Assembly (NCBI GenBank): GCA_013203315.1 | Contig: JABMQJ010000012.1 | Location: 6,402 to 70,401 of the forward strand | Reading direction: 5' to 3' | DNA: 64,000 bases | From: Candidatus Omnitrophota bacterium | GTDB lineage: Bacteria; Omnitrophota; Gorgyraeia; JABMRN01; RBG-13-46-9 | Part shown: one piece after another, positions 2,478 to 29,910 of the stretch | How positions within the stretch are numbered: the stretch's first letter is position 1 | Layout of the letters: each line of letters starts with the position of its first letter | Program-made: the position numbers and the translations under genes | Notes under the pieces: model-generated | The model's input: only the letters and a program-made list of their open reading frames with translations | Databases searched by the model: none | What the model was told of the DNA's origin: nothing

Positions 2478-3641
2478 ATGAAAAATAGGCCAGTCAGGTC
2501 CGCTAAAAGAAAAGCCGTCAAGAAATATACGCCAAGAAAAGACGAGCTTAAAAATTTAGCGGATTTCACTTCCAAAAACCCGAGGCCGTCTTTGTGCATA
2601 GGGAAAGGCGGGACTCTTCTTTACGCGAATGCCGCCAGTCTTCCTATTATTTCCGATTGGGGTAAAAAAATCGGCGATATGGTTTCTCGTGAATGGGGCG
2701 AGCTCATAAAAGAAGTTCTCGTCTCCGGCATTAGAGAAAATGTTGAGGTAGAGTGCAGTGGCCGCACTTATTCCTTCGTGATGGTGCCTGTGAAAAAAGC
2801 TTCTTACGTCAACATGTACGGGAGCGATGTCACGGAACGGAAAAGAGCGATGGAGAGGCTAACGGCCGCGTATGCCCAGCTTCAGGAAGCCCAGTCCCAG
2901 CTTGTCCGAGCGGAGAAAATGAACGTTATCGGTACGCTTGCCAGCGGTATCGCGCATGAGGTAAAAAATCCACTGGCTACTATATCCCAGGGCCTCGAGT
3001 ACCTTTCAAAAAATATTAATTCAAAAGATGAAAACGTGAATTCCATATTAAATTACATGGAAGACGCAGTCAAGAAGGCCGATGGCACGATAAGAGGGCT
3101 TTTGGATTTTAGTAGGGCCACGGCATTGGATATAAAATCGGAAAATTTAAATTCCGTGATTGAAGAGTCCCTGTCTCTTATAAAAATGCAGTCCGAAAAG
3201 AGTAAAACTACCGTTGTACAGGACCTTGACAAAAACATTCCGCAGATAGAAATAGACAAAAGTCGAATGCAGCAGGTGTTCGTGAACCTTTTTCTGAATT
3301 CCATTCAGGCAATGCCTGACGGAGGAGAGCTAAAGGTAAAGACCTACTTGAGGAAGTTGGTTAAGCGTAGCGTGATAGGCGTTGCGTCCCCGGGCGTGGA
3401 AAGCGCTATTGAAATCGAAGAAAAATCCATAATCGCAGAAATCGTCGATACGGGTAAAGGAATTCCCAAAGGCATCGCCGATAAAATCTTTGAACCCTTT
3501 TTTACTACAAGGCAGGGTAAGGGAGGCACAGGCCTAGGGCTTTCAATCGTAAGGAATATATTAGAGATGCATGAAGCGGGCATTGAAATAAAAAATAAAG
3601 AAGGCGGCGGGGTAAGAACAACTGTAATTTTCAAATTATAA
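2478..3641 (+). CDS. Cytoplasmic sensor histidine kinase (PAS-like N-terminus, HisKA, HATPase_c)
   Basis: H-box HEVKNPLATI, N/G boxes (NLFLNSIQAMPDGG, GTGLGLSIV). No TM segments. Confidence 0.85.
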   Translation: MKNRPVRSAKRKAVKKYTPRKDELKNLADFTSKNPRPSLCIGKGGTLLYANAASLPIISDWGKKIGDMVSREWGELIKEVLVSGIRENVEVECSGRTYSFVMVPVKKASYVNMYGSDVTERKRAMERLTAAYAQLQEAQSQLVRAEKMNVIGTLASGIAHEVKNPLATISQGLEYLSKNINSKDENVNSILNYMEDAVKKADGTIRGLLDFSRATALDIKSENLNSVIEESLSLIKMQSEKSKTTVVQDLDKNIPQIEIDKSRMQQVFVNLFLNSIQAMPDGGELKVKTYLRKLVKRSVIGVASPGVESAIEIEEKSIIAEIVDTGKGIPKGIADKIFEPFFTTRQGKGGTGLGLSIVRNILEMHEAGIEIKNKEGGGVRTTVIFKL

Positions 3642-3656
3642 AAGAGGAGGCGGATT

Positions 3657-4040
3657 ATGGCAAAGACAAAAATACTTATAGTTGACGATGAGGAAAATTT
3701 TGCACATATAGTAAAAATAAATCTTGAGCAGACGGGTAGCTTCGAGGTCGCGGTAGTGCCAGAGGCATCCGAGGCATGCAAGGCTGCCACGGTTCTTAAG
3801 CCGGACCTGATACTCTTGGATATAGTAATGCCTGACAAGGACGGCTTCGAAGTTCTAAAAGCGCTCAAGTCGAACGATAAAACCATGGCCATACCCGTAA
3901 TAATGCTGACAGCGGTAGGGGACGATAGCGCGAAGATTAAAGCAGCCGAGCAATTTAGCGAAGGTTACATCATAAAGCCGGTTAGCACCGAGGTTCTCCG
4001 GACAAAAATAGAAAGAGTGCTGGAGAGGCGCCCGAGTTAA
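3657..4040 (+). CDS. Single-domain response regulator (CheY-like receiver)
   Basis: ILIVDDE ... [14 protein letters not shown] ... conserved T/K positions. 127 aa with no output domain. Confidence 0.9.
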   Translation: [127 protein letters not shown]

Positions 4041-4067
4041 GGCCAAGATAAAACCTATGCATATTTT

Positions 4068-5471
4068 ATGAATATTCTTTTTGCTTCATCTGAGGTGGCG
4101 CCGTTTGCTAAGACCGGGGGATTGGCTGACGTATCCGCAAGCCTGCCGGCGGCCCTTGGCGAAATCGGGTGCGAAACAAAGGTCATCCTTCCTTTTTATA
4201 AAAGTGTCAAAAATATGGGCCTCGCCGGCCTCGTACCTTTTGCCATAAATGAATTCAATTTTTTTAAATATACAGAGCTCGGTATTGAGTACATTTTTGT
4301 CATTAATGACCGGTACTATGACAGGGAAAATCTATACGGGGAACCGCACGGCGATTACCCGGACAACGAGGCGCGTTTCTCATATTTTAGCAAAGCCATT
4401 GTAGCATTCGCCGCGCACACAGACCGAAAAACGGATATTATCCACTGTAACGATTGGCAGACGGGCCTGGTTCCCGTTTATTTAAAACTGCAAAAAAAAG
4501 AAATAAAAACGCTTTTTACCATACACAATATCGGTTATCAGGGTTTATTTAAAAAGGACCTGTTGGAAAGCCTTGGAATACCCAGGCAATTCTACAACAT
4601 AAACGGCATCGAATACTACGGGAAGATATCCTTTTTAAAAGCAGGAATCGTGTATTCCTCGGCTATAAGTACCGTCAGCAAGGGTTACGCAAGAGAAATA
4701 CTTACCCCGGCATTTGGTTGCGGTATGGACGGAATCCTCGGCACGCGCTCCTCCGAGCTTTACGGCATAGTTAACGGCGTTGACTATAACCTCTGGGACC
4801 CCGCGCGGGATAAATTCATAAAAGAGAACTATGGCCCGGAAAATGTTGATAAAAAAATAGAATGCAAGAAAGATCTGATAAAAGCAGTAGGGTTACCCGC
4901 CGAGACTATAGGCAGGCCGCTTATCGGCGTGATATCGAGGCTTGCGCACCAGAAGGGCATAGACCTTTTGGCCGGTGCAGCAAAAGAAATAATTGACCTG
5001 GGCGCAAGTATCATCATCCTCGGCACCGGGGACAAGAAGTACAACGCCATATGCTCGGATATTGCAAAGAAACACCCGAAATATATATCGAGCCAGATAA
5101 CTTTTAATAATGCCCTTGCCCACAAAGTCGAAGCAGGTAGCGATATGTTTGCGATGCCGTCACGATACGAGCCGTGCGGATTAAACCAGCTTTATAGCAT
5201 GAGATACGGCACGCTGCCCGTGGCAAGGGCAACGGGCGGATTAGATGATACAATAATTGATTTATACGAGGATAAAGACAGCGGAAACGGAATAAAGTTT
5301 CCGGATGCTACAAAAGACGGCCTTGTAAATGCCCTCCGCCGCGCCGTAGAACTTTATAAAGATAAAGCCTTGTGGCAGAGGACGCAGAAGAGAATAATGA
5401 ATCTGGATTTTTCCTGGAAAACATCCGCCTTGCACTACAAAGAACTCTACCAAAGCCTGCTTAATACATGA
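4068..5471 (+). CDS. glgA: Glycogen/starch synthase, ADP-glucose type (GT5)
   Basis: N-terminal EVAPFAKTGGLADV signature, 467 aa. Confidence 0.92.
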   Translation: MNILFASSEVAPFAKTGGLADVSASLPAALGEIGCETKVILPFYKSVKNMGLAGLVPFAINEFNFFKYTELGIEYIFVINDRYYDRENLYGEPHGDYPDNEARFSYFSKAIVAFAAHTDRKTDIIHCNDWQTGLVPVYLKLQKKEIKTLFTIHNIGYQGLFKKDLLESLGIPRQFYNINGIEYYGKISFLKAGIVYSSAISTVSKGYAREILTPAFGCGMDGILGTRSSELYGIVNGVDYNLWDPARDKFIKENYGPENVDKKIECKKDLIKAVGLPAETIGRPLIGVISRLAHQKGIDLLAGAAKEIIDLGASIIILGTGDKKYNAICSDIAKKHPKYISSQITFNNALAHKVEAGSDMFAMPSRYEPCGLNQLYSMRYGTLPVARATGGLDDTIIDLYEDKDSGNGIKFPDATKDGLVNALRRAVELYKDKALWQRTQKRIMNLDFSWKTSALHYKELYQSLLNT

Positions 5472-21225: not shown

Positions 21226-21958
21226 TATTTGCCTTACAATCGCCTATGACGGAACGCGTTACGGCGGTTGGCAAATCCAGAAAAACGCAAAAACAATTCA
21301 AGGTGAGATAGAAAAAGCTCTAAAAAAAATACTTAAAGAGAAAATAAAACTAACCGGAGCCGGCAGGACCGACTCCGGCGTACACGCCAGGGCGCAAGTC
21401 GCAAATTTTAAAACAAAAAAAATTTTTCCTCCCAAAAAGCTCACCGCTGCGCTAAACGCAAACCTCCCGACGGATATTTCAATAGTAAAGATAGAAAAAG
21501 TCCCTTCGGAATTTCATTCGCGTTTCGACGCAAAAAGTAAAATTTATCGGTATACTATTTTAAATACACGCGCGGACGACCCGTTTCTAATTGCTTATTA
21601 CTTTAAAATTCCCCGCAGGTTAGATGTTGCGCTGATGAGAAAAGAGGCAAGTGTTCTAGTGGGGACGCACGACTTCAAATCTTTCCAGGCCAAAGCCAAT
21701 CTGTCACCTGTAAAAAATACACGAAGAAAAATAAAAAAAATAACCATCAAAAGAGAAAAACAATTTATTTATATTGATGTTGAAGGTACGGGATTCTTGC
21801 ATAACATGGTTCGTAATATAGCGGGCACCCTTATTGAAGTAGGCAGGGGATACTTTCCGGAAGGCAGCATGAAAAAGATTCTGGCATCTCGCGACCGCCG
21901 GAAAGCCGGCCCCACGGCCCCTGCCAAAGCGCTTTTACTAGTACGGGTTAAATATTAG
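21218..21958 (+). CDS. truA: tRNA pseudouridine(38-40) synthase
   Basis: 246 aa. GAGRTDSGVHA catalytic Asp motif. 8-nt overlap with asd. Confidence 0.9.
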   Translation: MPNICLTIAYDGTRYGGWQIQKNAKTIQGEIEKALKKILKEKIKLTGAGRTDSGVHARAQVANFKTKKIFPPKKLTAALNANLPTDISIVKIEKVPSEFHSRFDAKSKIYRYTILNTRADDPFLIAYYFKIPRRLDVALMRKEASVLVGTHDFKSFQAKANLSPVKNTRRKIKKITIKREKQFIYIDVEGTGFLHNMVRNIAGTLIEVGRGYFPEGSMKKILASRDRRKAGPTAPAKALLLVRVKY

Positions 21959-21967
21959 CCCAATATT

Positions 21968-21996
21968 TTGACTATAATAGATCCGTTATGTATACT
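21968..21996 (+). promoter_or_regulatory. Sigma70-type promoter TTGACT-17-TATACT upstream of the membrane HK
   Basis: ttgact at 21968-21973, 17-nt spacer, tatact at 21991-21996. Confidence 0.55.
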
Positions 21997-22026: not shown

Positions 22027-23037
22027 ATGAAAAAGAATAAAACACGAAAAAGAAAACCGCGTGAAGATCAAAATAGCTATAAAGTAGTTATTTCTGATTT
22101 AGGCATGAGCCCGTTTCGCATTATGCGCGCCTCTTTTGTGTTAATGGGCATACTTCCGCTTCTTATCATCTTCTACATAATCGTAGGACGCAAATTTCTT
22201 TTTGATATTTTTCTGGGGACCAACGGCCTGATAGCGTTTTTTGCTGTCATGATCTCGCTCATAGGATTTGTGTATGCTTACACTCTTATTGCGAATATGA
22301 TAAGAAAACTAGTCGTGTATTCTGCCGAACGCAAGCAAATAGACGAGGAGAAAACCGAACTACTTCTTGCGGTAAGCCATGATTTAAAAACACCTTTAAC
22401 CATACTTAAAACGGGAATGCGTAATCTCACCGACGGTATCGGTGGGGCTCTAAGCAAGGTTCACGTCGGAGTGGCCGATCACTGCCTTCGCGCCGTGGAC
22501 AGGATAAACCGTTTTATAGATGAACTTTTGGACTTCTCCAAGGTGGGTTTCATGAGAACGAATATAAAGCGCGACCTGATAGACCTCGGCGAAATGGTAA
22601 AGAATGAGGTAGATGCGATGTCTGATCTTGCCAGAGAGAACGGGCAGGATCTTCGGGTTAAGATTGAGGCCAAAGACGCAAAAGTATGGGCTGACGAGAA
22701 AAAAATGTCAAGAGCGGTCATGAATCTTCTTTCCAACGCCATAAAATATACCCCGAAGGGCGGCAAGATTAACGCGACGGTATCCACTGATGAAAATACC
22801 ACGAGATTCACGCTAATAAATACCGGTCCCGGAATTCAGCCAAACGAATTAGATAAAATATTTAAAAAATACGAAAGGCTTGACAGGCATTCCGATGTAG
22901 AAGGCACGGGGCTTGGGCTTTCTATCGTAAAAGAAATAATGGATTTACACAAAGGCCGCCTAACCGTAAAAAGCGAACCCGGCAAAGAGACAGAATTTGA
23001 TCTAATTCTACCCAGAGACTTACGAGAACGAGTATAG
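22027..23037 (+). CDS. Membrane-anchored sensor histidine kinase (2 TM, HisKA, HATPase_c)
   Basis: TM segments FVLMGILPLLIIFYIIV and LIAFFAVMISLIGFVYAY. H-box SHDLKTPLT. N/G boxes NLLSNAIKYT and GTGLGLSIVKEI. Confidence 0.8.
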   Translation: MKKNKTRKRKPREDQNSYKVVISDLGMSPFRIMRASFVLMGILPLLIIFYIIVGRKFLFDIFLGTNGLIAFFAVMISLIGFVYAYTLIANMIRKLVVYSAERKQIDEEKTELLLAVSHDLKTPLTILKTGMRNLTDGIGGALSKVHVGVADHCLRAVDRINRFIDELLDFSKVGFMRTNIKRDLIDLGEMVKNEVDAMSDLARENGQDLRVKIEAKDAKVWADEKKMSRAVMNLLSNAIKYTPKGGKINATVSTDENTTRFTLINTGPGIQPNELDKIFKKYERLDRHSDVEGTGLGLSIVKEIMDLHKGRLTVKSEPGKETEFDLILPRDLRERV

Positions 23038-23061: not shown

Positions 23062-24072
23062 ATGGAAAGGGTAAGATACCAGATAGACCCGCATAATAGG
23101 CTCGTTATCCGGAAAGCTGCCAGAAAAACACCCCTTCCGTATTTTAGAAAAGTCCTGACAGGCCGTTTTAAAATCGATAACGATAATGAGCTCACCTACC
23201 ACGTAAAAACTCCCGTCCCGCATGGCAAAAATATTCCTCATCAGGTAAAGCTAAGAGGGCAATGGTCAGTAACAGATGATCATAATCTCCGTCTTACTTT
23301 TGACAAATGGGGAAGGGAGACTTTCGGCGATCGGCTTACCATAAAAGGCGATATCGTAGACACGAGTAAAAATTCATTCCTCTTTGCAATCACTACAAAA
23401 ACAAAAGAAAATACCCGCTCAACATATATACTTAGACTTCAAGGGGTATGGCAGGCCGATAAAAATAACCGTCTTACATTTAGGATAACAAAGGAGGATG
23501 GTAGGCATGATATTCTGGTATTAGACGGTATCTGGGAAATAAATAAAAACTATCAGATTATTTATAAATACGAAAAGGCGCATCTTGTAAGAAAACGAAA
23601 AAAACTTCACACCCTTATTTTTAAGGGCTATTGGGATATCTCCGGAAAAAAGCGTATATCATATATAATTGACGCAAAATCCGGTTCCGTGTTTAACTTT
23701 AAAACCGGCCTTGACATATTCAGGGCCGGTTATGTAAAATATGAACTAGGTGTAAAGCTCTCATACAGCCCTAAACCGGTTAAGCGCAAGATTACTCTTT
23801 CCGGTGCCTGGAAGATTAAGAGAAATCTAGGGCTTGTATTCGAAATGGCATACAAAAATCAAAAACTTCACGCCATAATTTTCGGCGCCGAAGCAAGATT
23901 GACGGCAAGAGATATGGTATCTTTCAGGCTTAGAAATGAATTAAATAAAGACATGGGCGTAACCTTAAAGCTGTCGCATAAAATATTAAAAGGGGACGGC
24001 GAGGCTTTTTTAAAATTACTTAGGTCGAAAAAAGAATGCGCCGTATTAGCAGGTTCGGGGTGGAAATGGTAA
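23062..24072 (+). CDS. Hypothetical repeat protein, ~9 tandem ~35-aa beta-hairpin-like repeats centred on G-x-W / N-x-L-x-F
   Basis: Repeats include LRGQWSVTDDHNLRLTF, LQGVWQADKNNRLTFRI, LDGIWEINKNYQIIYKY, FKGYWDISGKKRISYII and LSGAWKIKRNLGLVFEM. No signal peptide. 7-nt overlap with the downstream protease gene. Confidence 0.6.
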   Translation: MERVRYQIDPHNRLVIRKAARKTPLPYFRKVLTGRFKIDNDNELTYHVKTPVPHGKNIPHQVKLRGQWSVTDDHNLRLTFDKWGRETFGDRLTIKGDIVDTSKNSFLFAITTKTKENTRSTYILRLQGVWQADKNNRLTFRITKEDGRHDILVLDGIWEINKNYQIIYKYEKAHLVRKRKKLHTLIFKGYWDISGKKRISYIIDAKSGSVFNFKTGLDIFRAGYVKYELGVKLSYSPKPVKRKITLSGAWKIKRNLGLVFEMAYKNQKLHAIIFGAEARLTARDMVSFRLRNELNKDMGVTLKLSHKILKGDGEAFLKLLRSKKECAVLAGSGWKW

Positions 24073-24806
24073 CTAAGCTTGCCGCAGCGGTAATCGTCGT
24101 TATGCTAACCTACGCGCCAAGTATAATTGCCGATACAATTATACTTAAAAATGGCGAAGAAATAGTAGGAAACGTGGTTAGTGAATCCGGCGAAGGTGTA
24201 GTAGTAAGCAAACAGGGCGGAAGCTTTGTATATTCAATTTCAAAAAATAGAATAAAAAACATAAGAAAATCAACCCCGGGGGAAGAAGCCTGGCAGGAGA
24301 AAAAAGAGGGGCGTTTCTACAAAACGGATAAGAAAAATATTTCCGAACAAAAAAGCAAGTGGAAAGAATACCGTTTATCGGAATACAAAAAAGAAGTGAT
24401 TGCAGCAGATCGTGCCCAGGGCAGAATGCGCGTTCATTTTACGAATAATAAATTTGGCGTTGTGGATGTGGTTCTGAATGATAAAATAAGGGCCTCGCTT
24501 TTCGTTGACACGGGTGCTAGTTTTGTATCGATTTCCGAGAAAACAGCCGGAGACCTAAAGATTGACTTAGGGTCGCTTCCGAAGATCAAGCTTATACTCG
24601 CAAACGGAAGCGAGGTAGAGGGGTATTCTACTACGCTCGATTCAGTCGAAGTCGGCAATGCCCGCATCGAAAATGTTAAAATCGCTATACACAAGATGTC
24701 TGACTCCGGCAAGGTAGACGGCCTCCTCGGCATGTCCTTCCTGAAGCACTTCCACGTAAAACTTGATTCACAAGAGAACTGTCTCATCCTCGAAAAATAC
24801 CAGTAA
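24066..24806 (+). CDS. Secreted retropepsin-like aspartic protease (clan AA, bacterial DTGA type) with an N-terminal SH3-like region
   Basis: Signal peptide MVTKLAAAVIVVMLTYAPSIIA. Catalytic LFVDTGASFVSIS and flap-like GLLGMSFL. Start taken at ATG 24066 instead of the ORF-track start 24036. Confidence 0.7.
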   Translation: MVTKLAAAVIVVMLTYAPSIIADTIILKNGEEIVGNVVSESGEGVVVSKQGGSFVYSISKNRIKNIRKSTPGEEAWQEKKEGRFYKTDKKNISEQKSKWKEYRLSEYKKEVIAADRAQGRMRVHFTNNKFGVVDVVLNDKIRASLFVDTGASFVSISEKTAGDLKIDLGSLPKIKLILANGSEVEGYSTTLDSVEVGNARIENVKIAIHKMSDSGKVDGLLGMSFLKHFHVKLDSQENCLILEKYQ

Positions 24807-24836
24807 TTCGAACACTCCTTTTTCTGCGCACAAATT

Positions 24837-24865
24837 TGACAAAAGTTAGTTCCTAATGTATACTT
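24837..24865 (+). promoter_or_regulatory. Sigma70-type promoter TTGACA-17-TATACT upstream of cheR-TPR
   Basis: ttgaca at 24837-24842, 17-nt spacer, tatact at 24860-24865. An ~85-nt AT-rich leader follows, with ttgagtt x2 and cataata x2 direct repeats. Confidence 0.55.
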
Positions 24866-24950: not shown

Positions 24951-26465
24951 ATGCCTGCAACAGTAGATATAAGAAACCAATTTAAGACTTTTGTAGCCAA
25001 CCGTGGCGGCCTATATTTTAAGGACCACGACCTAAAGAACCTCGAAAGCGCTATCTCCGCACGAATGAAATCCCGCGGAATGCATTCATTTCCCGGATAC
25101 TATGCATACCTTACAACCGCCGAAGAGAAAGAAGATGAGTTCAGAGAACTCTTAAATCTTCTAACGATAAACCACACATACTTCTTCAGGAACGAACCAC
25201 AATTCAAGGCTCTGAGGGAAAAGGTTTTGCCCAATGTGATTGAGAAAAAACGACAAGAAGCAAGCGCATCAGGCGAGGAAAAACCCGCGTTACGCATATG
25301 GAGCGCCGGTTGTGCGACAGGACAGGAGCCATATTCAATTGCAATGATAGTGCGTGATCTTATAGAAGACATAGATGATTGGGACGTACAAATACTCGCC
25401 ACTGACGCGTCCGAAAATGCATTACAGAATGCACGAAAAGGCACATATAGCCAGAACTCGGTAAAGCATGTTGATGAAACGCGCCTCGCGAGATATTTTA
25501 CAAAAGAAGGGAATACCGAGCGCGATACAAAATACCGGATACAGGAAAACATTAGAAGAATGATTAATTTTGCCTTTTTCAATCTCATGGAGGAAAGTTT
25601 CCCTACGGGTTTTGATATCATATTTTGCCGCAACGTTGTCATATATTTCGAATTTGAAACAACTGTAAAGGTTATGAATAAGCTTTATTCCGGCCTTTTA
25701 GACGGCGGTTACATGTTCATAGGCTATTCCGAAACGCTTCAATTCATGCAGGACAGGCTTCAGATGATAAGTTGGGAAGACGCGATATATTATCACAAGG
25801 CCAAAGGAAAAGCACCTGTTTATACGGAATTCGCCGAACCCCTGCCTGCTAAAGAGGAGATAGATCTAGATAAGGTCCTGGAAGAAATCTCAAAGGCAGA
25901 AGCCACCGCGAACTTAGAGGCCGAGACAAAAAAAGCGCCGCCTACTCAAAAAATAGAGAATATGCTCATTCAGATTATTAAAGCCATGCACCTAAAGCAA
26001 TACGACAAGGCCCTCTCACTTATTGAAGAAGCAAGTTCAGTGGACGATAAAGTGGTCGACCCTCATTATCTGGCGGCCGAGATTTTTATAAACCAGGGAA
26101 AAAGAGGCGAGGCAAAGACAAGGCTTTCTACCGCGCTAAAACTCGATTCGCTTTTCGCGCCGGCGCATTATCTTTATGGTTGTATATACGTGGAGGAAAG
26201 CGATCTTGATAACGCGAAAAAAAGTCTGAAAAAAGCCTTATTCATAGATAAAAATTTCTTATTGGCGCATTTTTATCTTGCTCAGGTTTTCAAAACCGAG
26301 GGACGCACAAAGGATGCGATCAGGGAATACAGAAATAGCCTGAAACTCTTGTCCGGGGCTGCGCCCGGAGATATTATAGCCTATAGCGGCGGGTTTAATG
26401 CTGCTACATTCATGAGTGTTTGCAGGGATAATCTGGAAAGACTAAAAATAGAATACGGAGATTAA
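24951..26465 (+). CDS. CheR-type protein-glutamate O-methyltransferase fused to C-terminal TPR repeats
   Basis: CheR N-terminal helical domain. SAM-binding RIWSAGCATGQEPYSIA. Residues ~330-504 form TPR helices (LAAEIFINQGKRGEA, YLYGCIYVEESDLDNA, HFYLAQVFKTEGRTKDA). Confidence 0.85.
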   Translation: MPATVDIRNQFKTFVANRGGLYFKDHDLKNLESAISARMKSRGMHSFPGYYAYLTTAEEKEDEFRELLNLLTINHTYFFRNEPQFKALREKVLPNVIEKKRQEASASGEEKPALRIWSAGCATGQEPYSIAMIVRDLIEDIDDWDVQILATDASENALQNARKGTYSQNSVKHVDETRLARYFTKEGNTERDTKYRIQENIRRMINFAFFNLMEESFPTGFDIIFCRNVVIYFEFETTVKVMNKLYSGLLDGGYMFIGYSETLQFMQDRLQMISWEDAIYYHKAKGKAPVYTEFAEPLPAKEEIDLDKVLEEISKAEATANLEAETKKAPPTQKIENMLIQIIKAMHLKQYDKALSLIEEASSVDDKVVDPHYLAAEIFINQGKRGEAKTRLSTALKLDSLFAPAHYLYGCIYVEESDLDNAKKSLKKALFIDKNFLLAHFYLAQVFKTEGRTKDAIREYRNSLKLLSGAAPGDIIAYSGGFNAATFMSVCRDNLERLKIEYGD

Positions 26466-26661: not shown

Positions 26662-29600
26662 ATGGAAAAGCAAATCAAACATAAGACTAGCTTGAGGCGA
26701 AAAATCGCGTTTCTTATTGTATTTTCCTGTCTTATCGTTATGCTTACAGGTTTTGGGTTGGGGTATTTATGGGGATTCAATTTGTTGCGTACTACAATAG
26801 GCGAAAGCCATGTCAGCATGGCCGATTTAATTTCAGAATCTGTTAGCAGAATTCTCAACGAAGAAGTCTCGGATCTTCACATATACATGTCGCTTCCGTT
26901 ACGCAGGGGCATGATTGAAAAGCAAAATCTCAAATATAGAGGAATGAATGAAGAGGCCGTTAGCAGATATTTTAAAGATATGGACGAAAAGTGGAAAGGG
27001 ACACAAAAAGACAATCCTTTGATCGAAGAATTGTTAGCGACAGAAACCAGCAACAGGTTGAAAAGCTTAGTAGCCGGAGATGCCGGTATTGCAGAAATTT
27101 TCATGACTGATGTGCAAGGAGGGTTAGTCGCTTCCTCAAACAAAACAAGCGATTTTTACCAGGCAGACGAAATCTGGTGGCAAAAAGCTTTTAACAACGG
27201 AAAGGGCGCTGACTTTATCGGGGATGCAGAACTTGATACGTCGTCTAATGTAATAAGCATAAGCTTAGCCGTCCCCATAAGAGGCGATTCAGGAGAAGTG
27301 ATAGGTGCCTGCAAGGCTGTCATGGATGTGAACCGTTTGTTTGAGCCCTTAAAAGATTTTGTTATCGGAAAAACAGGTCATGCAGTGTTGATTAACAAAA
27401 AAGGCGTTATCATTTTTCAAGAGGACATCACACCTTTAAGCCAAAGCCTAACAAGCGAAGAAAATTTGCAAAAAATATTAGAAACCCCAAAAGGGTGGAT
27501 AATTACAAGCAAACCTAACGAGCATAACAAAAAAACATTTATTGCGTTCACGGCAAGCAATTACTCTCTCTTTTTGCGAGAAGGGATACTGTGGAAGGTA
27601 TGCGTAGGCCAAAATGCCGATGAAGTGTTTGCGCCATTGAATACTTTAATGTTTCAGCTTTTTATAGTTGTCATTCTTGCCGCCGCAATTCTTGTTTTGG
27701 CTAGTGCGGTGTTTAGTGCAGCGTTCATTAAGCCGCTAATTGAGCTTCGCAATGCTACGGAGAAAATCGCGAAGGGTGATTTAGACTACCATATAGAAGT
27801 AAAAACGGGCGACGAAATCGAAGAATTTGCCGATTTTTTCAACCGGATGACTGACGAGTTAAAAAAATCTACTAGATCCGTCAGTGCGCTAAATAAAGAA
27901 ATCACCGAGCGTAAGAAAGTAGAATATGCACTTAAAGAAAGCGAGGAAAGATATAGAGTGCTGTACGATTCCTCGCGCGATGCCATTATGACATTGATGC
28001 CCGGGGGGAAATTTTTAAGCGGCAATCCTGCTACATTAGAAATGTTTGGGTGCAAGGATGAAAAAGAATTTATTTCTAAAACCCCAGCTGATTTATCACC
28101 GGAATATCAACCCGATGGGGAACTTTCTAGCGTAAGAGCGAAGCAGATGATGGACATGGCAATGGAAAAAGGTTCGCACTTTTTTGAATGGACGCATAAG
28201 AACGTAGGCGGAAAGAATTTTTTCGCTACAGTATTATTGACCCGAATGAAAATGGGAAATAAAGAATTTTTGCAAGCGACAGTCCGTGATATTTCCGTGT
28301 CTAAGAATATAGAGACTAAAGTAAGGCAAGCAGCAGAAGAATGGCAGCGCACATTTGATTCGATAGCGGATTTGGTATTTATTCAGGATACGAATTTCGT
28401 TATACTGAAAGCAAACAGGGCGTTTGCCGAAGCGATTAAAATGAAACCCGAAGACATTATCGGCAAAAAATGTTATGATTTATTGCATGGTCGGGATAAG
28501 CCATGGCCAAACTGTCCGTTTGAAAAAACAAAACACGACTCGAAGGCCCACACCGAAGAGGTGGACGACCCAAATATTGGCCTACCACTTTCGGTTTCAA
28601 CTTCGCCGATATTTGACAAAAAAGGTAAATTGGTGGGCAGCGTGCATATTGCCCAGGACATAAGAGCCAGAAAGAAAGCAGAGAAAGTCTTTCAGGACAC
28701 AAAAGACGAATTGGAAAAACAGACCTGGGGGCTCAGAAAAAGCAACGAAGCCATCAAGTCTCTCTATAAAGAGTTGGAGGGAAGCAATAAAGAACTCCAG
28801 AAGTTGGACCAATTAAAATCCGATTTCGTGTCAACCGTTTCACACGAATTACGCACGCCGCTATCTATAACTAAAGAAGGCATATCCTTGGTCCTGGATA
28901 GGGTAACCGGTGATATTAGCGGAAAACAGGAAAAAATACTCTCTACGGCAAGGGATAACATAGATCGCTTAGCTCGAATAATAAATGACCTACTTGATAT
29001 ATCCAAAATCGAAGCAGGCAAGGTCGATTTGAAAAAAGCCCTCGTGGATCTTTCAGGTAAGATAAAGGACGACTGCACATTATGGAAAATAGATGCGGAT
29101 AAAAAAAATCAAACCTTACAAATTTCCGTGCCGGATTCCCCGGTTAGCATTTATGTTGATCCTGACAAGATGGACCAAATTCTTCTTAATCTCGTATCGA
29201 ATGCCGTAAAATATACCCCTGATAAAGGAAAAATAAAGGTTGAGTTAAAAGATAAAGAAGGCGAGGTAGAGGTTTCTATTTCCGATACAGGCGTTGGCAT
29301 TGCCAAGGAGGATTTTCATAAGTTATTCGGTAAATTTCAACAGTTCAGCAGGGCCATAGGCCCAGGGGCAAAAGGCACGGGGCTTGGCCTTGCCATTGTT
29401 AAGCAGCTTGTTGAAATGCACAAGGGTAACATACGCGTTGAAAGCGAGCTCCACAAAGGTAGCAAATTTATCTTTTCTATTCCCAAGCTGGATGTTGAAG
29501 AGGTGTTTAGGGAATATATTAGTAGCGGGATAAAACAGGCAGCCGATAGAAAAACGCATCTTTCACTTCTTATTGTGCACGTGGTGAATTTCAAGCAAAT

Positions 29601-29910
29601 TTTTGAAGAGCTGGGCTATGATAAGGCGCACGCTTTACTTAAGGACATTGCGAAAGAGACAAAGGGATCGCTGCGTCGCCGTGCGGATAGCGTGGTAAGA
29701 GATACGGGCGATCTTATTGTGCTTCTATTCGATACGCGCAAGGAAGATGTGGCGGTTGTGAGGAAGAGGGTTGAAAAAACAATTAGCGATTATCTATCCG
29801 GCGGCAAAGAAAAATTTCTTAAAAATATCAGCATAACTTTCGGTAACGCAACATATCCCGATGAGGCAATCACTGATGAGGAATTACTAAAAAAGGCAAG
29901 ACCCGCGTAA
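26662..29910 (+). CDS. Multi-sensor histidine kinase: TM-periplasmic Cache-like domain-TM-HAMP-3 PAS-HisKA-HATPase_c, plus a C-terminal degenerate GGDEF domain with a preserved RxxD I-site
   Basis: 1082 aa. Two TM segments flank a ~280-aa extracytoplasmic domain, followed by HAMP (GDLDYHIEVKTGDEIEEFADFFNRM). H-box SHELRTPLS, G-box GTGLGLAIVKQL. The tail LSLLIVHVVNFKQIFEELGYDKAHALL...RRRADSVVRDTGDLIVLLFDT aligns to [27 protein letters not shown]...[21 protein letters not shown] of the downstream GGDEF protein. GGDEF is replaced by DTGDL but RxxD is kept. No receiver domain. Confidence 0.85.
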   Translation: MEKQIKHKTSLRRKIAFLIVFSCLIVMLTGFGLGYLWGFNLLRTTIGESHVSMADLISESVSRILNEEVSDLHIYMSLPLRRGMIEKQNLKYRGMNEEAVSRYFKDMDEKWKGTQKDNPLIEELLATETSNRLKSLVAGDAGIAEIFMTDVQGGLVASSNKTSDFYQADEIWWQKAFNNGKGADFIGDAELDTSSNVISISLAVPIRGDSGEVIGACKAVMDVNRLFEPLKDFVIGKTGHAVLINKKGVIIFQEDITPLSQSLTSEENLQKILETPKGWIITSKPNEHNKKTFIAFTASNYSLFLREGILWKVCVGQNADEVFAPLNTLMFQLFIVVILAAAILVLASAVFSAAFIKPLIELRNATEKIAKGDLDYHIEVKTGDEIEEFADFFNRMTDELKKSTRSVSALNKEITERKKVEYALKESEERYRVLYDSSRDAIMTLMPGGKFLSGNPATLEMFGCKDEKEFISKTPADLSPEYQPDGELSSVRAKQMMDMAMEKGSHFFEWTHKNVGGKNFFATVLLTRMKMGNKEFLQATVRDISVSKNIETKVRQAAEEWQRTFDSIADLVFIQDTNFVILKANRAFAEAIKMKPEDIIGKKCYDLLHGRDKPWPNCPFEKTKHDSKAHTEEVDDPNIGLPLSVSTSPIFDKKGKLVGSVHIAQDIRARKKAEKVFQDTKDELEKQTWGLRKSNEAIKSLYKELEGSNKELQKLDQLKSDFVSTVSHELRTPLSITKEGISLVLDRVTGDISGKQEKILSTARDNIDRLARIINDLLDISKIEAGKVDLKKALVDLSGKIKDDCTLWKIDADKKNQTLQISVPDSPVSIYVDPDKMDQILLNLVSNAVKYTPDKGKIKVELKDKEGEVEVSISDTGVGIAKEDFHKLFGKFQQFSRAIGPGAKGTGLGLAIVKQLVEMHKGNIRVESELHKGSKFIFSIPKLDVEEVFREYISSGIKQAADRKTHLSLLIVHVVNFKQIFEELGYDKAHALLKDIAKETKGSLRRRADSVVRDTGDLIVLLFDTRKEDVAVVRKRVEKTISDYLSGGKEKFLKNISITFGNATYPDEAITDEELLKKARPA

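Follow-up and report, generated by a model that had tools for sequence, protein, structure and literature searches.

The open reading frame (ORF) that occupies positions 23062 to 24072 of a 64,000-nucleotide stretch of DNA from a Candidatus Omnitrophota bacterium (contig JABMQJ010000012.1; we refer to the whole stretch as the window) is, judged from its sequence, a real and strongly conserved gene, and its product (the repeat protein) belongs by the same measure to a new family of all-β hairpin-repeat proteins. At this locus the repeat gene lies between a gene for a membrane histidine kinase and a gene for a retropepsin-like (clan AA) aspartic protease, and among the family loci that we compared the sole recurrent neighbor is a peptidase gene downstream. 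We favor, at a probability of about 0.4, the reading that the repeat protein and the downstream peptidase are expressed together and that the former acts, as a non-enzymatic protein partner (a substrate or a regulator), in the same proteolytic process. Here the repeat gene and the protease gene, which share a 7-nucleotide (nt) overlap, may be translationally coupled, and the repeat protein would take part in the proteolytic process of the peptidase either as a substrate or pro-protein that is cleaved, or as a bait or docking scaffold.

Size of the family and search for relatives

A word-indexed search returned 505 homologs of the repeat protein, and a full scan with a hidden Markov model gave 493 clusters at 50% identity. 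Nearly all members are 320 to 350 amino acids (aa) long; a short subfamily of about 247 to 250 aa (L174, positions 3501-5133; also P0351-P0379) lacks the first 90 or so residues, that is, the N-terminal hairpin and the first repeat unit, and keeps a C-terminal G-x-x-I-P-F end. The organism-labeled family records are all from Candidatus Omnitrophota, with the exception of metagenome-assembled genomes (MAGs) carrying the generic labels 'uncultured Planctomycetia/Planctomycetales' and of one cluster from a Syntrophaceae bacterium. Just two narrow peptide patterns sufficed to find 213 loci in species-representative genomes. Both complete chromosomes among the locus matches (CP070780 and CP070837) have one repeat locus each, and a few MAGs have two to five copies. 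The homolog search did not return the repeat protein of this locus itself (the best match is 65% identical), and it returned the adjoining protease at 100% identity (under the name 'retroviral-like aspartic protease family protein [Candidatus Omnitrophica bacterium]' at NCBI); either that collection lacks the repeat protein or the contig carries another annotation there.

An initial annotation of this DNA had been unable to place the repeat protein in any known family, and our searches agree with it. Neither the locus protein nor any of 71 diverse relatives reached the cut-off of a Pfam or NCBIfam family, the repeat protein matched no PADLOC model, and no PDB chain was matched by sequence or by profile (the best profile match, to a transmembrane hairpin of the TonB-dependent receptor ZnuD, was not significant at E = 0.015). 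MORN and Kelch, which the annotation had named as examples of well-known families that would speak against its reading, were not found: MORN gave no match at E ≤ 1 for the locus protein and none at E ≤ 0.01 in the 71 diverse members, and Kelch, WD40 and other propellers gave no Pfam repeat match and appeared in the Foldseek comparison described below only at template modeling (TM) scores of 0.10 to 0.16, with a root mean square deviation (RMSD) above 20 Å. Lipocalins and other calycins were not recovered either (Lipocalin_4 in just 2 of 71 members, best E = 0.0036; DUF5640 at E = 0.31; no lipocalin at a TM score above 0.15). Three further groups of matches were rejected as spurious: DUF7926 (E = 5e-4, in one of the 71 members), an adhesin-type domain in an isopeptide-bond survey; DUF7840, in five of the 71 and always below cut-off; and the YydG radical-SAM matches (E = 0.0017 and 0.098). 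Literature searches for the family, for β-barrel or papain-like proteins of Omnitrophota, and for the DUF names returned nothing relevant, and the family is described by none of the papers in the library searched.

Hairpin units and predicted structure

The repeat protein contains five exact copies of the G-x-W motif, beginning at residues 66, 128, 156, 189 and 248, and these hold five of its eight tryptophans (shuffle probability 5e-5), and degenerate G-x-F and G-x-I copies are present at residues 34 and 96. In pairwise hhalign comparisons of sub-alignments of the family, the segments 55-115, 116-176, 177-236 and 237-296 are mutually homologous (96-97% probability, E values of 1e-9 to 1e-11), and the N-terminal 54 residues are a partial copy (96.4% probability against unit B). 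On these alignments the true repeat unit is a double hairpin of about 60 residues, present in four copies and a partial one. The approximately nine repeats of the initial annotation stand as a fair count of single hairpins of about 30 aa, whereas the unit that has statistical support contains two hairpins. Each unit opens with h-x-h-x-G-x-W (h, hydrophobic), followed by a tight D/N-K-N-N turn and then by R-L-x-F.

Along nearly every strand of the family alignment hydrophobic and charged columns alternate almost perfectly, and throughout the family one face of the strand is hydrophobic and the other charged. The family has a median net charge of +27 and an isoelectric point (pI) of about 10; the net charge of the protein at this locus is +37. 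Its members share a C-terminal pattern, G-x-x-hydrophobic-x-W/F-COOH: of 307 members, 296 end in W or F and 295 have G at position -5, and about 79% carry W, F, I, L or V at position -2. The N-terminal sequence, conserved and polar (M-x-K-x-R-Y-E-I-D-P-H-N-R-L), shows no hydrophobic stretch in the family alignments, hence no Sec or Tat signal, and the mere 24 nt that separate the repeat gene from the end of the kinase gene leave no room for a longer N-terminus. The invariant residues are mainly G, W, F, Y and L, with D, N and R in turns, and no catalytic-looking set of residues was found among the conserved positions of the family alignments. Without a conserved catalytic constellation, the repeat protein is unlikely to be an enzyme and most probably has a binding or structural function.

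Structure prediction, which the initial annotation had proposed as a check, gave a confident model. AlphaFold2 (AF2) with the alignment of 71 diverse sequences produced an all-β model with a predicted local distance difference test (pLDDT) value of 85 and a predicted TM score (pTM) of 0.82; an alignment of 35 close homologs gave a pLDDT of 36 and was discarded. The model has about 30 DSSP strands, corresponding to some 22 to 24 long strands with bulges at G-x-W, and model and alignment together give strands of 9 to 13 residues joined by short turns. Foldseek searches of the PDB and BFVD found no analog: the best TM score was 0.16, and the top matches were propellers and elongated β proteins with an RMSD above 20 Å. 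The modeled structure is possibly a new fold. Mean-field direct coupling analysis independently recovered several sequential antiparallel hairpins and placed its strongest covarying pair at long range (H11-W83), although with an effective number of sequences (Neff) of 233 for a length of 336 it is too noisy to fix the topology; no covariation signal for closure between the N-terminal and C-terminal strands was seen, at low power.

Association with downstream peptidases

We examined the neighborhoods of 87 repeat-gene loci (8 obtained by exact protein look-up and 80 by genome scan, with a few duplicate records). In 62 loci the genes immediately downstream on the same strand represent 73 Pfam families, Peptidase_C1 being the most frequent; in 54 loci the upstream genes represent 99 families, and no histidine kinase is among them. 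When all ORFs in the repeat-gene loci were clustered, one group stood out, a papain-family C1 peptidase of 260 to 280 aa that has neither a signal peptide nor a prodomain. It is present in 16 of the 87 loci, usually 20 to 95 nt downstream of the repeat gene, and in three sequence clades. The pairing extends to the short subfamily: in L174 a 249-aa repeat protein is followed after 95 nt by an orthologous C1 peptidase, with identities to their counterparts of 36% for the repeat protein and 49% for the peptidase. A single MAG, JAHITY01, has five copies of the family (loci L040, L046, L049, L050 and L051), four of them with a C1 peptidase no more than three genes downstream; the five could be true paralogous modules or the product of a mixed-strain bin.

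In three lineages the repeat gene is followed directly by the gene for a retropepsin of one and the same architecture, with a signal peptide and an N-terminal domain. The first comprises this locus and that of a close relative (L089), where the overlapping junction of repeat gene and protease gene is identical. In the second (L056) the context is unrelated, the gap is 41 nt and the protease is 30% identical (E = 8e-24), and in the third (L136), again in an unrelated context, the gap is 48 nt and the repeat protein is just 32% identical. The link between repeat protein and protease suggested in the initial annotation is in this way borne out in part: a downstream peptidase is the sole recurrent neighbor of the repeat gene (C1 in 16 loci, retropepsin in three lineages), but most loci have unrelated neighbors. 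The repeat gene stands alone and changes its chromosomal position between lineages. Because the partner peptidases come from two unrelated catalytic classes, a relationship that does not depend on class would fit better than a class-specific inhibitor of the active site.

The retropepsin and the histidine kinase

The protease downstream of the repeat gene matches PF13975 (2.5e-18, 66.9 bits against a cut-off of 28.2) and PF13650 (9.1e-18, 65.2 bits against 24.3), which, with the D-T-G-A motif, upholds its annotation as a clan AA protease; DTG is invariant across its orthologs, and the cut-off of TIGR02281 (clan_AA_DTGA) was not reached (52.7 against 57.95 bits). Its N-terminus has the expected hydrophobic, signal-like segment (MVTKLAAAVIVVMLTYAPSIIA/DT), and the ATG at 24066, which overlaps the TGG-TAA end of the repeat gene, is backed as the start codon by an alignment of 16 orthologs (MVTKLAAAVIVVML...A/DT). 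The N-terminal domain of about 45 residues matches NCBIfam NF047433 (Lepto_7_Nterm) below cut-off (36 against 43 bits). A match of the retropepsin domain (24066-24803) to the candidate-defense model PDC-M08B of PADLOC (E = 1.2e-11) probably reflects just the shared protease domain, because the repeat protein matches no PADLOC model.

The kinase (HisKA, 4.7e-9; HATPase_c, 1.7e-28, both in Pfam) had been grouped with the repeat protein and the protease in a trio with a promoter of its own, a unit that did not survive comparison with a syntenic relative (L090). The gene order there is leuD-leuB-asd-truA-HK-protease-bigHK (HK, histidine kinase), with neither the repeat gene nor the cheR gene; identities to the proteins of this locus are 89% for leuB, 82% for asd, 72% for truA, 62% for the kinase, 60% for the protease and 49% for the large Cache-PAS kinase. 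In L090 (positions 3000-4741) the stop codon of the kinase gene overlaps the ATG of the protease gene (TAATG). Because kinase and retropepsin are directly coupled to each other there, the kinase is, on this comparison of gene orders, a neighbor or bystander of the repeat gene and not a conserved partner. The same coupling without a repeat gene makes kinase and protease the older pair in this lineage, with the repeat gene between them only at this locus and in the L089 branch. Among 83 protease-homolog loci L090 is the only one with this kinase upstream, and its junction suggests a kinase-protease pair that is possibly of interest in itself.

Alternative explanations

Several observations weigh against a partnership between the repeat protein and the peptidases. 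About 75-80% of the repeat-gene loci have no peptidase nearby, and, approached from the protease, the repeat gene stands beside just 2 of the 56 retropepsin-homolog loci with at least 1.1 kb of upstream sequence (L136 and L089). Most C1-linked loci fall in one sequence clade (two further clades are also paired), so that part of the C1 signal is inherited synteny, and the neighboring genes in the fetched loci were called by a crude longest-ORF method. The retropepsin is predicted to be exported, while neither the repeat protein nor the C1 peptidase carries an export signal; because these predictions differ, a single model of physical interaction misfits both partners unless further assumptions are made. 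The repeat protein is, moreover, more conserved (55-65% identity) than the proteases (30-50%), for which reason a housekeeping structural role would suit it better than that of an inhibitor or substrate. Such a role is a serious if tentative alternative: the protein would be a structural or scaffold component of Omnitrophota (it might be a basic protein with affinity for membrane surfaces or nucleic acids, or a part of the cytoskeleton or envelope) with no functional tie to its neighbors, and its adjacency to peptidases would come from inherited synteny and, in genomes that are compact and single-strand-biased, from chance. A protein of this kind would lead one to expect what is observed: a sequence that is highly conserved and of constant length throughout the phylum, one match in each of the two complete chromosomes sampled, a charge of about +27, very heterogeneous neighbors on both sides, and no copy of the gene at the syntenic site in L090. 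What it explains poorly is that the same rare retropepsin architecture recurs downstream in three separate lineages and contexts, which is unlikely for a gene occurring once or twice per genome, that the C1 pairing holds from forms of about 340 aa to one of 249 aa, and that four of the five copies in one MAG are followed by a C1 peptidase.

The C-terminus invites a different explanation, which we consider unlikely, namely that the protein is a membrane-inserting β-barrel or pore-forming protein without a signal peptide (following the logic of VDAC or gasdermin), the amphipathic hairpins and the C-terminus serving in membrane insertion or recognition and the neighboring proteases in processing or activation. 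That end fits the outer-membrane β-signal pattern in about 96% of members, the strict alternation of hydrophobic and charged residues in strands of 9 to 13 residues with short turns is suitable for a barrel, the best (non-significant) PDB profile match is the ZnuD hairpin, and downstream proteases of differing catalytic classes would be compatible with activation by cleavage. Set against this are the lack of a signal peptide with a conserved, polar N-terminus; the absence of any outer-membrane protein, porin or VDAC among the Foldseek matches of a confident AF2 model (best TM score 0.16); the lack of a gasdermin match in PADLOC; a basic charge atypical of bacterial outer-membrane proteins; the missing covariation signal for strand closure, at low power; and the behavior of the gene, which is conserved and mostly single-copy and not patchy as a defense gene would be. 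Still less probable is a fuller version in which the family would form a new class of barrels or pores with a β-signal of the outer-membrane protein or VDAC type, without signal peptides and basic enough for acidic membranes, to be switched on or processed in gasdermin-like fashion by peptidases of interchangeable class. The hydrophobic strand face would also suit a lipid-binding or lipid-transfer groove or barrel, its cavity lined by that face and its very basic exterior docked on acidic membranes, and we hold this to be similarly doubtful. Faint lipocalin-like Pfam matches (Lipocalin_4 in 2 of 71, DUF5004, DUF5640), lipid-related genes within about 6 kb (DDHD at 8 loci, PLD-like at 7, SYLF/Ysc84 at 5, ketoacyl-synthase and acyl carrier protein [KS-ACP] at 5) and, at a few loci, Tle1-like and DUF900 hydrolases as the next genes downstream point toward it; the Pfam matches are, however, far below cut-off, Foldseek found no lipocalin, LolA, LptA or TamB-like fold, and the frequency of the lipid-related genes, which are concentrated in a few clades, may be ordinary. 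Least probable of all, and by a wide measure improbable, is a single regulated module of kinase, repeat protein and protease that functions as a trio under the promoter at 21968. The tight packing of the three genes without a terminator-like site between them, the terminator-like hairpin and promoter-like motif upstream, and the coupling of kinase and protease kept in L090 would be in keeping with it, but L090 has that coupling without the repeat gene, which largely refutes the trio; no other repeat-gene locus has a kinase directly upstream, L090 is the only one of 83 protease loci with this kinase upstream, and the promoter-like motif is not above chance.

Layout of the locus and neighboring genes

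The three ORFs of the initial annotation were found as described, all on the forward strand (histidine kinase, 22027-23037; repeat protein, 23062-24072; protease ORF, 24036-24806), and the coordinates of the features are collected in Table 1. The genes are closely packed, with a 24-nt gap between kinase and repeat gene, a 7-nt overlap between repeat gene and protease gene, and no terminator-like site between them. The motif TTGACT-17-TATACT, which had been annotated as a consensus promoter, is present with a score of 10 of 12. The region, however, has no excess of motifs of this kind over shuffled sequence (8 found against 7.1 ± 2.9 expected), and the motif is a plausible promoter at most.

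Table 1. Positions of the features discussed, numbered from the first letter of the window
Feature	Position	Strand	Description
Terminator-like hairpin (21945-21961, just after truA), then sigma-70-like TTGACT-17-TATACT (21968-21996)	21945..21996	+	Ahead of the kinase gene
Histidine kinase gene	22027..23037	+	Membrane protein, 336 aa; two N-terminal hydrophobic segments with a very short loop between them, then HisKA and HATPase_c
Repeat-protein gene	23062..24072	+	336 aa, all-β, net charge +37, pI 10.2, without signal peptide
N-terminal region of the repeat protein, residues 1-54	23062..23223	+	Conserved hairpin R-Y-E-I-D-P-H-N-R-L and partial unit G34-x-F36
Four tandem double-hairpin units	23224-23406, 23407-23589, 23590-23769, 23770-23949	+	About 60 residues each (hhalign)
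C-terminal motif G-S-G-W-K-W-COOH of the repeat protein	24052..24069	+	Family alignment
7-nt overlap ATGGTAA of protease start codon and repeat-gene stop codon	24066..24072	+	Sequence; starts of protease orthologs
Retropepsin-like (clan AA) aspartic protease	24066..24806	+	246 aa; predicted secreted or periplasmic
Parts of the protease	Signal-like segment 24066-24131; small β N-domain about 24135-24269; charged linker; retropepsin domain about 24462-24749	+	DTGA at 24507-24518

Between the protease gene and a large sensor kinase gene lies a gene for a 504-aa fusion of a CheR methyltransferase with TPR (24951-26465). Neither of the syntenic loci, L089 and L090, has this gene, which for that reason looks like a lineage-specific insertion; ahead of it, at 24836-24864, is a strong promoter-like motif (TTGACA-17-TATACT, 11 of 12). 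The large sensor kinase (26662-29910) is a 1082-aa protein with dCache, HAMP, two PAS, HisKA and HATPase_c domains and a C-terminal GGDEF-like domain, and it is kept downstream of the protease in L089 (80% identity) as well as in L090 (49% identity). Nearly all long ORFs of the window (1-64000) are on the forward strand and the cumulative GC skew climbs steadily, consistent with a single leading-strand stretch of one replichore. No second copy of the repeat gene and no C1 peptidase were found elsewhere within the window.

In the clade nearest this locus (L001, L002, L006, L008 and L076) a 64- to 68-aa HTH_17 protein is encoded about 140 nt downstream of the repeat gene, and several of these loci then carry a cluster of ketoacyl-synthase, acyl carrier protein and thioesterase genes. 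Genes with hydrolytic or lipid-related products turn up repeatedly no more than about 6 kb from the repeat gene: DDHD (L007, L009, L011, L019, L032, L050 and L052), PLD-like (L010, L012, L023, L034, L049, L052 and L076), Ysc84/SYLF (L026, L029, L030 and L045), Tle1-like, DUF900 and C92 amidase.

Comparison with known systems and significance

The family resembles MORN (PF02493, PF07661) and other β-hairpin repeats in its tandem hairpins, in the G-x-W on the first strand followed by a tight turn, and in being all-β and, most probably, non-enzymatic. It differs in its period (about 30 aa per hairpin and 60 aa per unit, against the 23 aa of MORN, YxGxWxxGxxxGxG), in the strongly hydrophobic face of every strand, and in giving no Foldseek match to the solved structures of MORN or other repeats. 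With the barrels of the outer membrane and of mitochondria (porins, TonB-dependent receptors and VDAC, the substrates of BAM and SAM) it has in common amphipathic antiparallel hairpins with short turns, a β-signal-like G-x-x-aromatic-x-aromatic-COOH end and a weak profile similarity to the ZnuD hairpin; unlike them it has no signal peptide and is very basic, and its AF2 model is unlike any solved barrel.

As a β-rich protein without a signal peptide that is encoded beside a protease, the repeat protein also recalls bacterial gasdermins with their proteases, staphostatin with staphopain, and chagasin/ICP. Gasdermin is a substrate activated by cleavage, and staphostatin and chagasin/ICP are all-β cytoplasmic inhibitors of papain-like proteases. 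The likeness to bacterial gasdermin extends to a downstream protease whose catalytic class varies between lineages; in contrast to gasdermin, the repeat protein matches no PADLOC family and no Pfam gasdermin, and a protease is adjacent downstream in about 20% of its loci. It is much larger than staphostatin and chagasin and matches neither in sequence or fold. From all such protease-partner pairs the family differs in being a conserved, phylum-wide gene rather than a patchy defense or virulence gene, in that most members have no adjacent protease, and in that one class of partner (the retropepsin) is predicted to be exported and the repeat protein has no export signal. The protease of this locus shares with bacterial retropepsins of the TIGR02281 type (clan AA, DTGA) the PF13975/PF13650 domain, the DTGA motif and an N-terminal export or anchor segment, and is set apart from them by its additional small N-terminal β domain (the sub-threshold NF047433 match) and charged linker. 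Examples of retropepsin-like proteases in bacteria include Caulobacter PerP and Rickettsia APRc.

The uncultured Omnitrophota are ultra-small bacteria that probably depend on hosts, and most of what is said of their biology is deduced from genomes. Candidate phyla have many uncharacterized lineage-specific families, and the mechanism proposed here is drawn from gene neighborhoods. The present analysis defines a large, well-conserved family without detectable relatives, with a confident predicted structure that matches no other and a C-terminus like that of outer-membrane proteins in the absence of an export signal, and it corrects the local picture, in that the histidine kinase pairs with the protease and not with the repeat protein. 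If the protein were, against the odds, a barrel or pore, its target might be the envelope of the cell itself or the membrane of a host or prey. A structural housekeeping role would make the family a candidate marker of the phylum and possibly a new β-repeat fold. If, as we favor, the link to the peptidases is true, the repeat protein would offer a handle on a lineage-specific proteolytic process in these bacteria, be it activation, quality control, or interaction with a host or prey.

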